Part shown: positions 873 to 25,277 of the stretch, one piece after another
Layout of the letters: every line of letters starts with the position of its first letter
Numbering within the stretch: position 1 is the stretch's first letter
Assembly (NCBI RefSeq): GCF_003334315.1
Contig: NZ_QOWR01000053.1
Length of the DNA: 32,848 nt
Origin: Escherichia coli
Lineage (GTDB): Bacteria; Pseudomonadota; Gammaproteobacteria; Enterobacterales; Enterobacteriaceae
Reading direction: 5' to 3' (one strand)
Position numbers and translations under genes: made by a program
The notes under the pieces: generated by a model
Databases searched by the model: none
The model's input: the letters and a program-made list of their open reading frames with translations, nothing else
Told to the model about the DNA's origin: nothing

Positions 873-911
873 CACGCTACCGCCCCTGGCTTTACAGCTA
901 CCAGAGCACTG
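873..911 (-). promoter_or_regulatory. JUMPstart element containing the ops site (GGCGGTAGCGTG on the minus strand), the RfaH antitermination signal for the O-antigen operon
   Basis: The plus strand reads cacgctaccgcccctggctttacagctaccagagcactg, the reverse complement of the 39-bp JUMPstart consensus CAGTGCTCTGGTAGCTGTAAAGCCAGGGGCGGTAGCGTG. Confidence 0.85.
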
Positions 912-1169
912 CATGCATGCCTACGATGTGACGAGCGTTACCCACTCGCGCTAAACCCGAAAAATTCAAACGCTAATTGTCTTACCAATCCGCTCTGGAA
1001 ACAAGGAAAATCCTGGAAAACTTTGACTAAAATCCTATTGCTAACTCGTTGTTATTCTGATTATTTATATAAAACAACGGCAGGAATATTCGCAACAAAT
1101 TACTTTCGCCACGAATCTTCACCGCCGTTATAATTTTCTTATCAACCGTTACATCCGGTCAGATTTTCA

Positions 1170-2063
1170 TTATTCGCTTAACAGCTTCTCAATGCCTTTA
1201 CGGAACTTAGCCCCTTCTTTTAGGTTGCGTAGTCCATACTTCACAAATGCCTGCATATAACCCATTTTTTTACCGCAGTCGTAGCTGTCACCGGTCATCA
1301 GCATGGCGTCAACGGACTGTTTTTTCGCCAGCTCAGCAATGGCATCAGTCAGCTGAATTCGTCCCCATGCACCAGGCTGAGTACGTTCCAGTTCCGGCCA
1401 AATATCGGCAGAAAGCACATAACGGCCCACGGCCATAATATCTGAGTCCAGCGTTTGCGGCTGATCCGGTTTTTCGATGAATTCAACAATGCGGCTGACT
1501 TTACCTTCTCGATCCAGCGGCTCTTTGGTCTGGATGACAGAGTATTCAGAGAGGTCACCTGGCATACGTTTTGCCAGCACCTGGCTGCGGCCCGTTTCGT
1601 TGAAGCGCGCAATCATGGCTGCAAGGTTGTAGCGCAGCGGGTCGGCGCTGGCATCGTCGATCACAACGTCTGGCAGCACCACGACAAATGGGTTGTCACC
1701 AATGGCAGGTCGTGCACATAAAATGGAGTGGCCCAAACCTAAAGGCTCGCCCTGACGGACGTTCATAATGGTCACGCCCGGTGGACAGATGGACTGCACT
1801 TCCGCCAGTAGTTGACGCTTCACGCGCAGTTCAAGAAGAGATTCTAATTCATAAGAGGTGTCGAAGTGGTTTTCGACCGCGTTCTTGGACGCGTGAGTTA
1901 CCAGGAGGATTTCTTTGATCCCTGCAGCCACAATCTCGTCAACAATGTACTGAATCATTGGCTTGTCGACGATCGGTAGCATCTCTTTGGGAATCGCCTT
2001 AGTGGCAGGCAACATATGCATCCCAAGACCCGCTACAGGAATAACTGCTTTTAAATTCGTCAT
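1170..2063 (-). CDS. galF: UTP-glucose-1-phosphate uridylyltransferase-like protein GalF
   Basis: Translation [68 protein letters not shown]... is recognised as GalF; ATG at 2061-2063 chosen over the upstream GTG used in the ORF track. Confidence 0.93.
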
Positions 2064-2237
2064 TATTTCATCCACCTGTAAAATGGTTGCTGAATTATAG
2101 CTTGTTCGATTTTTTTCGCCAGCATCAATTACCCTGAATTGATTACTGAATTACTTATGATGTTACGCCGCTTCGTTGTGGATTGCAGTAGCATTGTTCC
2201 TAAGTATGGCTCCATTTTTCCAGGAATGGTCGCAAAT

Positions 2238-3632
2238 CTACTCCCTCCGTTCCGGCAATCTAAAGTTAATCTTTTCCACATTAACAATATGGTGATTAAC
2301 TCTGTCGATATCGACGGAGCTTTGCCCTTTTTCATTCACCGCATGAACATTTGCAAGTGACAGCAGTGTTTCTTTTTTCGCCATAAAGACGCCGCGAACG
2401 TCTTTGCGCATGTCGAAGTTCATGCTCAATGCGGGTCCAACAGAGGATTCCTGCATCACCTTGATATTACGCATAAAAAGATGTTGCGGTTTGTTGTGAA
2501 GCTCCAGCGAGGCACGCTTCATCTCAATGTTAGTCAGTGCCACAAAGGAGGCAGCATTCCCGGCGGAGATTTGGATGCCGCGCAATTTGTAAGCAAGGTG
2601 GGTATTATCCAGTTGAATATTATTCACTCGGAAATTTTGCGGTATCGAGAGATATTTGCCTTTAATTACCCCATAGCCGATTAACATCCCGGCGCTATTA
2701 ATCATTTCAATATTATCAATCACGAAATTGTCACAACCGTAAATAGCGACTGTGGCGTTATCAATGCCTGCTTTCTTACTGAAATCCGGCGTGATATTGC
2801 AGGCTTTGATATTACGAATAACAAAATGTTTACCATTTTCAACATGGATCAACTGCCGACAATCCGATCCCGTGATATTCGCCACGACAAAGTTTTTCAC
2901 TGCCTGATCTTCCGGGTAATTATTATCGTAAGTGCTTCCCGCAAGGCCTATGCCGATGCCCCAGTTGATTTTGCCGTTGGTACAGTTGATGCGCTCGATG
3001 ATGTGGTCGGATATCAAAATATCGCGGTCGTTAATCGCCACGTTCCATTCAATGGCATCGCCCTGTAAGTCGCTGAACTTACAATTGGTGATGTTGGCAC
3101 CGATAATCTGGTTATGAAATCCCTGGCGTAAGATGGCGTAATTAGCGTGGCTGACAGTGAGGTTATCGATGGTCAGGTTGCGCATGACCCGTTTGTTTTT
3201 GCCGCCAATATAAATCTGCGTTACTGGGCCAAAGCCGCTCATCGCCAGCCCTTTGATGGTGCAATCAGAACCACGCACATCCAGGGTGATGTTATGCATA
3301 CTGCCGCCATCCTCCCCTGTCACCTGGCTGCCGTCCTGTAAGACAAATCTTCCTCTGCCGTTGCCGCGCAGGCATCCAAGGATGTGTAACGTTTTACCTG
3401 CAGGGATGAAGATGCCGGTGTTGATATTGTCACAAACCAATCCAGCAGGCACGACGACCGTTTGCCCTTCGCTGAAGGCTTGTTTAAATGAGGCGATCCA
3501 GTCGTGTGGATTATAATCGTTAATATTAACGCTTGTTCGGGCGGGAAGCGCACGGGCGAAAGGGGTATGGAGGAAGGCAAGCGCCGAGCTTGCCGTCAGG
3601 AAGGTGCGTCGGGAGAGTGTTTTAAATGGCAT
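2238..3632 (-). CDS. wcaM: Colanic acid biosynthesis protein WcaM (Tat-signal, beta-helix protein)
   Basis: 464 aa, N-terminus [28 protein letters not shown] with a twin-arginine motif; position immediately upstream of galF matches the known cluster order. Confidence 0.9.
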
Positions 3633-3642
3633 ACGTTCTCCT

Positions 3643-23469: not shown

Positions 23470-23471
23470 TC

Positions 23472-23915
23472 TTATACCTGCTCTGCGTTCAATGCCTGCG
23501 CCCACTGGCGGGCAGACCGTTCAAGTAATGTGTACACCGCTGCAAACGTTTCCCGGCTTTTGCGATACGGATCGGGGATTTCACATTCGTTATCCCAGTG
23601 ACCAAACAGCATCACTTTGCCGCGCATCTCCGGTGCCATCTCGCATAAGCGTTCGATATGGCGCTTTTCCATGGTCAAAATCAGGTCGTAGTTGCGACAC
23701 AGGCGGCGGCTGATTTGACGGGCACAGTGACCTTCCAGAGACAGTTGATGTTCTGCGGCGACGCTGATAGCAGTAGGGTCAGCGCCCTTACCGACCAGCG
23801 CGCCGAGTCCAGCGGACTCCACTTTCAGCTCCGGGTGATAACGTTGCAGTAAGCGTTCCGCCGTCGGGGAACGGCAAATATTGCCGACACAGACAACTAA
23901 GATGTTGTTAAACAT
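23472..23915 (-). CDS. wzb: Low-molecular-weight protein-tyrosine phosphatase Wzb
   Basis: 147 aa, MFNNILVVCVGNICRSPTAERLL (CX5R P-loop phosphatase motif). Confidence 0.95.
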   Translation of the reverse strand: MFNNILVVCVGNICRSPTAERLLQRYHPELKVESAGLGALVGKGADPTAISVAAEHQLSLEGHCARQISRRLCRNYDLILTMEKRHIERLCEMAPEMRGKVMLFGHWDNECEIPDPYRKSRETFAAVYTLLERSARQWAQALNAEQV

Positions 23916-23920
23916 GACGA

Positions 23921-25060
23921 TTACCAGTTATGAATGTCGCTGGCTGTATCCGTCATGTAACGGACACCGCTAATAGTTGGCAGCAACTGATTGATCAGAC
24001 GGTTCCAGCGGGAAACCGGGGCGGTGGTGACATACACCACGTCATAAGGTTGCAGGCGGAATTCTGTCGCCATCACCAGCGACGTGGCATCGGACATATC
24101 CAGCTGGTAGATATTGGCAATCTTGCCGTTACGCCCGCCCTCGCCTTTCAGCGGACGAATGACAAAGATGCCGCTGGCGTTGGAGGTGGTCATGTCGATG
24201 CCTTCAGCATTGCCCAGGGCTTCGGTCAGGGTCATGCCGCTAAAGTCCATTTTCAGGGTGCTCTGTTTCTTCACTTCACCCATCACAAATACTTTCAGAT
24301 CATCATTACGCGGCACGTAGAGAATATCGCCGGGATAAAGCAGTCGGTTCTGATTGAGGTCGCCGTTTTGCATCAGCGCCTGCAAAGAAATGCGTTCTTC
24401 ACGACCATTGTGTGTTAGCACCACGTTGCGCCAGTCAGCGGTGTCGGTCAGGCCACCTGCGGCGTTGATGGCGTCGAGAATGGTCAGTGGTACGTTGGTG
24501 ATCGCCTGTTGGCCGGATTTATTCACCTGTCCGGAGATATAGGCCTTTTGTGAGCGGAAGGCGGCGATATTAACGTCCACCTGCGGGTCAGCGATGTACG
24601 TCGCTAAGCGCCCGGTAATATCACTGCGGATTTCAGCGAGCGTTTTCCCCACCACGTGAACCTTGCCGATATACGGGTAAAACATAGTGCCGTCAGGCTG
24701 TACCCAGTTGCCGGTGTCGCTGGAGCTGCGGTACTGACCGGCTGGCGTGGTGAGTTCCGGGTGATCCCAGACGGTGACATTAAGAACGTCCCCCGGCCCG
24801 ACGCGATACTGGTAATTCGCGATCTCGCTTTCCAGCGTCATATTGGGGCGCGCTACGTTGGGTCGTGGACGTAATTGATCAATCAGGCGCGGGGTCAACG
24901 GATAAACATTCACCATTTTGTCGAGATCGAAATCAGCGTCCTGCTGTTTGATGACGTCTTTGCCCATCGTCGACATATTGCTGCCCGGAAGTACTGTGCA
25001 ACCGCTTATCAAGGTTACTGACACCAATAATGGCATCAATTTCATTTTGGATTTCATCAT
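23921..25060 (-). CDS. wza: Outer-membrane polysaccharide export lipoprotein Wza
   Basis: 379 aa, lipoprotein signal [21 protein letters not shown]; polysaccharide export (Wza) family; first gene of the colanic acid operon. Confidence 0.95.
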
Positions 25061-25238
25061 TGTTTATTTATCACTTTGGCAGAGTAATTATCCTGTGCAC
25101 TATTAATAGCAATGTCGCCATGCACATTTACCTTGCAGTTAATTGAATAAAAATTTAACTGGCATCAGTCCTAAAAAAATTGATTTCATCCGCAGGCTAT
25201 TGACAGAATAATTCAGACTGGTCTTTCAGGCATCCAGA

Positions 25239-25277
25239 CACGCTACCGCCCCTGGCTTTTTAGCTACCAATACACTG
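25239..25277 (-). promoter_or_regulatory. JUMPstart/ops element in the wza 5' leader (RfaH-dependent antitermination site for the colanic acid operon)
   Basis: cacgctaccgcccctggctttttagctaccaatacactg is near-identical to the element at 873-911 and contains the reverse complement of ops GGCGGTAGCGTG at 25239-25250. Confidence 0.85.

Follow-up and report, generated by a model that had tools for sequence, protein, structure and literature searches.

The window analysed here is a stretch of Escherichia coli DNA of 32,848 nucleotides, which is an entire short-read contig (GCA_003334315.1 QOWR01000053.1) with both of its ends lying inside copies of the insertion sequence IS1. Two copies of the JUMPstart element with its operon polarity suppressor (ops) sequence were located in this window, one in the leader between galF and the O-antigen cluster and the other in the leader of wza, the first gene of the colanic acid operon. 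The positions of the two elements are as follows.

873..911, minus strand: JUMPstart element 1, in the leader from galF to the O-antigen cluster, with ops at 873-884 and the predicted ops pause base (T11) at 874.
25239..25277, minus strand: JUMPstart element 2, in the wza (colanic acid) leader, with ops at 25239-25250 and the predicted ops pause base (T11) at 25240.

The sequence of element 1, read on the minus strand from 911 to 873, is CAGTGCTCTGGTAGCTGTAAAGCCAGGGGCGGTAGCGTG, and that of element 2, read on the minus strand from 25277 to 25239, is CAGTGTATTGGTAGCTAAAAAGCCAGGGGCGGTAGCGTG. The whole window was scanned against Rfam at gathering thresholds and four matches were obtained. Two of these were to RF01707 (JUMPstart, gathering score 35) and lay exactly at the coordinates and strand of the two elements, scoring 60.0 bits (E = 1.4e-11) for element 1 and 57.3 bits (E = 8.3e-11) for element 2 and covering the full model in both cases (positions 1-38 of 38). 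A preliminary description of this DNA had reported two 39-bp elements at these positions, and its coordinates, its strand and the plus-strand reverse complements that it quoted were all correct; the agreement with the JUMPstart consensus on which it had let its identification depend is provided by the two full-length RF01707 matches.

The 12-nt ops sequence GGCGGTAGCGTG was found in exactly two copies in the window, at 873-884 and 25239-25250 on the minus strand, and each copy forms the 3' end of its element, confirming that both elements contain ops. All 12 bases of the ops test sequence GGCGGTAGnnTG were matched in both elements, including bases 3-8, which contact RfaH and the substitution of which reduces or abolishes RfaH recruitment (PMC5995543). 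When two mismatches were allowed, the search of the whole window returned further matches only at chance frequency. Pairwise alignment of the two elements revealed 34 identical positions out of 39 (87%), so that the wording "near-identical" used earlier is slightly generous. The five substitutions fall at element positions 6, 7, 8, 17 and 18, all of them outside the ops core, as had been proposed.

The two copies share an exact run of 23 nt (AAAGCCAGGGGCGGTAGCGTGTC), and chance alone would give about 8e-6 pairs of this kind; an independent repeat search also recovered the pair (family D3, 871-911 and 25237-25277, 41 nt, 88%). These values bear on the explanation that the two segments resemble each other only as a chance or low-complexity match devoid of function. 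No support for it was found, and the Rfam E-values of about 1e-11, the shared 23-mer and the conservation of the elements at orthologous positions in thousands of genomes exclude it, leaving it a negligible probability. As judged from sequence, both segments are true JUMPstart/ops elements, namely the two canonical ones of the galF-his region of E. coli and Shigella, where they are already known, textbook features.

The context of the two elements is in accordance with this identification. Both lie on the same strand as the clusters downstream of them, and the spacers hold no same-strand coding sequence in annotated relatives. The G+C content of both leaders is 27-35%, compared to 52% for the window, and such AT-rich leaders are as expected for RfaH targets bound by H-NS. 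The assignment of the elements to the leaders of the O-antigen and wza-wcaM operons, made in the preliminary description, is borne out by the position of element 1 in the spacer between galF and wzx and by that of element 2, which lies upstream of wza on the same strand.

The operon that follows element 2 is complete.

2238..25060, minus strand: colanic acid operon wza-wcaM, 20 collinear genes over 22.8 kb, all open reading frames (ORFs) being full length.

The gene order from 25060 to 2238 on the minus strand is wza, wzb, wzc, wcaA-F, gmd, fcl, gmm, wcaI, cpsB, cpsG, wcaJ, wzxC and wcaK-M, and is the same as in the annotated K-12, O157:H7, O6 and O25 loci; NCBIfam matches confirmed Wza, Wzb and WcaM. 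Element 2 is separated by 178 nt from the ATG of wza and by 441 nt from the divergent yegH. Its 39-mer is identical at 39 of 39 positions to the wza-leader copies of K-12 DH1, O157:H7 and an O6 uropathogenic E. coli strain, and differs by one base from that of an O25 strain. Of 5426 complete E. coli genomes, 4829 have the wza leader. The JUMPstart/ops in the wza (cps/wca) leader of K-12 and CFT073 is followed by the same flank and stands equally far from wza, and no difference from element 2 was detected.

Some further observations were made within and around this operon. The algC RNA motif (Rfam RF02929, threshold 33.8) was matched with 77.3 bits at 10624-10673 on the minus strand, where cpsG (phosphomannomutase) has its 5' end, and hence inside the wca operon. 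Repeats of the repetitive extragenic palindrome/bacterial interspersed mosaic element (REP/BIME) type occur at 10710-10885, 6202-6289, 21263-21285 and 27722-27744. The spacer between cpsB and cpsG holds a tandem pair of 88-bp REP/BIME-type units that are 97% identical; one of these units corresponds to Rfam naRNA4 (RF02564, 75 bits), and the copy number of the unit varies among close relatives.

The neighbourhood of element 1 was found to be interrupted a short distance downstream, and its features are given below.

1170..2063, minus strand: galF (TIGR01105, 685 bits, ORF residues 5-301).
391..629, minus strand: 5' fragment, of 80 codons, of a wzx-type flippase gene, the first O-antigen gene, identified by homology to intact flippase genes.
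1..390, plus strand: right-hand part of an IS1 that lies inside wzx, antisense to O-antigen transcription; the C-terminus of InsB is encoded at 1-372, and 390 is the last base of the terminal repeat.

The stop codon of galF is followed after 258 nt by element 1, which in turn is followed after 243 nt by the start of the wzx fragment; public gene calls place this start either at a TTG at 629 or at an ATG at 650. The fragment matches the N-terminus of intact flippases of 448 aa (PF01943) in the relatives L001, L002, L006 and L007 with 99.8-100% identity. In intact relatives the flippase opens an 11-gene O-antigen cluster, which is followed by gnd; the order of the cluster is wzx, a wzy-like gene, three glycosyltransferases, gmd, fcl, gmm, manC, a GT2 glycosyltransferase and manB. 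Among the complete E. coli genomes, 3741 of 5426 hold the galF-JUMPstart spacer and only 3 have this wzx; in the others, the homology with the spacer stops 2 to 19 nt past the element.

The 39-mer of element 1 is identical at 39 of 39 positions to the galF-side copies of K-12 (where the cluster begins with rfbB), of the O6 strain and of strains carrying the intact cluster of this O type. Element 1 therefore has the same 39-bp sequence and the same place after galF as the JUMPstart described for the E. coli O-antigen (rfb) cluster (Hobbs & Reeves 1994; RF01707). Unlike the rfb cluster of K-12, the cluster here opens not with rfbB but with wzx, at codon 80 of which IS1 is inserted; the JUMPstart shows no difference. 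The O-type-specific sequence begins directly after ...GCGTG in the comparators. The galF-side JUMPstart is the left boundary of an exchangeable O-antigen cassette, which is a familiar role for it.

It was also observed that different O-antigen types cease to share sequence within 0-19 nt of the galF-side JUMPstart's 3' end, both here (at 873) and at the corresponding points of L008-L011. In its 5' half, the galF-side copy has diverged in O157 (TCGTACACTGGTAGCGATTAAGCC...) and, to a slight degree, in O25, and the ops is invariant in all copies. Public gene calls include a 90-aa ORF lacking a Pfam match at 861-1133 on the plus strand (L012 9518-9790), overlapping element 1 on the opposite strand; it is probably a spurious call across a regulatory leader.

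The identity of the interrupting sequence was established by a transposase match (NF033558, 127.4 bits against a cut-off of 100), and its junction is sharp, base 391 being the last with homology to wzx and base 390 the first of the IS1 terminal sequence GGTAATGACTCC... The insertion follows codon 80 of wzx and lies 482 nt downstream of element 1. The O-antigen operon had been described as "decapitated by IS1"; the presence of IS1 holds, and the wording is loose, for the element sits within wzx and not between the leader and the operon. A public record for a 93-aa wzx'-IS1 fusion, starting at the ATG at 650, matches the contig exactly, and no exact public record was found for the 86-aa fusion ORF that starts at the TTG. 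Look-up of the two predicted 3' wzx fragment products gave no public record, and look-up of a downstream glycosyltransferase gave no match on any contig of GCA_003334315.1.

The right end of the contig, from about 32773 (32773-32848), is the left end of a second IS1, which interrupts dgcE/yegE about 502 codons into the gene. Both terminal IS1 copies are in the same orientation and bracket a block of 32.4 kb comprising wzx', galF, the wca operon, yegH, asmA, dcd, udk and dgcE'. Lying between direct copies, this block could be lost by IS1-IS1 recombination. The load of insertion sequences suggests a Shigella-like or enteroinvasive E. coli-like genome.

In L003 and L005, the closest relatives, which show 1 mismatch in 11.2 kb, wzx is free of IS1. 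They carry a clean 4043-bp deletion, which begins at about codon 65 of wzx and reaches into a gene for a glycosyltransferase (11197/11198, corresponding to about 436 in the window). The IS1 insertion in one strain and the separate deletion in L003 and L005 imply that the same O-antigen cluster was independently inactivated at least twice.

This raises the question of what element 1 still does. It can be viewed as a relic which could still load RfaH and no longer drives O-antigen synthesis, the cluster past IS1 being possibly deleted or rearranged; its survival would then reflect either a recent IS1 event or a conserved galF-JUMPstart flank kept for other reasons. The break of the first gene at codon 80, the deletion in the same gene of L003 and L005, which indicates repeated loss of the cluster in this lineage, and the lack of public records for the predicted 3' wzx fragment products are in favour of this view. 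Element 1 is nevertheless unchanged at all 39 positions with respect to strains having an intact cluster, and since the contig stops in IS1, a simple insertion with the remaining cluster intact is equally possible. The relic status is thus plausible at somewhat less than even chance, and it bears on the output of element 1 only, its nature being unaffected.

A further suggestion is that polymerase modified by RfaH at element 1 might cross IS1 and relieve polarity on O-antigen genes still present beyond it, and that the antisense transcription could lower the IS1 transposase. This is considered very improbable; if true, the phenotypic effect of the insertion would depend on RfaH.

The function of both elements is best explained by the JUMPstart/ops-RfaH mechanism, and this explanation is held with high confidence. 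In this mechanism, polymerase would initiate at a promoter upstream of the element and transcribe into ops, where the exposed non-template strand would fold into a small hairpin and the polymerase would pause at T11 of ops (874 and 25240). RfaH would then bind and displace NusG, pausing and premature termination dependent on Rho and H-NS would be suppressed, and a ribosome would be recruited, with the outcome that the distal genes of a long operon are expressed. Element 2 would serve the intact 22.8-kb wza-wcaM operon once Rcs activation permits initiation, and element 1 would act as the leader of the O-antigen cluster, which has wzx first and is broken by IS1 at codon 80 of that gene.

Direct observation covers what the elements are, where and on which strand they lie and how far they are conserved, as well as the intact wca genes and the IS1 break. 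By analogy with the literature on orthologous elements identical in sequence, RfaH recruitment and antitermination are expected in this strain as well. The elements are base-identical to orthologous RfaH sites and lie on the non-template strand of AT-rich leaders, which makes the same mechanism the best explanation. All RfaH-controlled operons have a 12-nt ops in the leader, which induces a pause at U11 (PMC5995543). Chromatin immunoprecipitation of RfaH in CFT073 gave signal at eight leader ops sites, including those of wzx and wza-wcaM, and at these two sites the signal was lost in an rfaH deletion (PMC9765446). Colanic acid transcription is described as involving JUMPStart-RfaH antitermination together with activation by RcsA/RcsB (PMC9976346, citing Stout 1996 and Hobbs & Reeves 1994). 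The ops sites of rfaQ/waaQ, hly, kps and F tra likewise have in common the 12-nt ops, its location on the non-template strand and the 5' leader of a long envelope-related operon (PMC9765446); the comparison with these sites covered the ops.

Sequence evidence contradicting the JUMPstart/ops assignment was not found in the analysis of the window, and a few points do weigh against the proposed mechanism. The sigma-70 scans of both leaders gave no more matches than shuffled sequence. The contig does not carry rfaH itself. The operon of element 1 is interrupted, so RfaH loading there may be without productive output. In addition, when wild-type CFT073 grows in rich medium, H-NS silences initiation at the wza locus, and RfaH was detected there only in an hns stpA double mutant (PMC9765446).

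The scans for promoters and activator sites near element 2 gave the following candidate.

25366..25393, minus strand: sigma-70-like site TGGAGA-16-CATAAT, matching 9 of 12 consensus positions; it is the only such site upstream of element 2 and is a weak candidate.

The sigma-70-like matches near element 2 were fewer than the shuffle expectation. With up to three mismatches to the RcsAB box consensus TAAGAATATTCCTA, a single match was obtained, at 1081-1094 on the minus strand and at chance level, and none in the wza leader. About 270 nt upstream of element 2, the sequence TAAGAAATATCGCA (25544-25557, minus strand) resembles an RcsAB box by eye and is too weak to be scored as one; it matches 9 of 14 positions of TAAGATTATTCTCA, the RcsAB box quoted for Klebsiella (PMC3438125). 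A terminator-like match at 885-870, overlapping ops, was treated as a scan artefact owing to its weak stem (5 pairs, 3 of them G-C).

The part played by the 5' half of the element was also considered. In Rfam, JUMPstart is treated as a cis-regulatory RNA whose 5-bp stem pairs positions 8-12 with 22-26, and the conserved 5' half could accordingly act as a structured RNA beyond the DNA-level context of ops. The stem can be formed in both copies; the sole substitution in it, C8 to U8, retains a wobble pair with G26, the remaining substitutions lie in the loop or at the unpaired 5' end, and the stem bases are unaltered in the diverged galF-side copies of O157 and O25 as well. Folding spoke to the contrary, as neither 39-mer folds better than its own shuffles (z = -0.03 for both) and the Rfam stem is missing from the minimum-energy fold of copy 2. 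Among the gathered sequences no compensatory double changes were seen, only conservation. Published structural and genetic work shows that RfaH reads a hairpin of the non-template DNA strand, which places recognition on DNA (PMC5995543). An additional role as RNA is therefore regarded as unlikely, and recognition of ops by RfaH remains the preferred explanation for both elements.

Both elements mark the expected RfaH loading points for the O-antigen and colanic acid operons, and the main value of the finding is correct annotation. The IS1 insertion in wzx, taken together with the independent deletion in the relatives, suggests a lineage that is losing its chromosomal O antigen with the colanic acid operon kept intact, and this is of modest use for serotype prediction.

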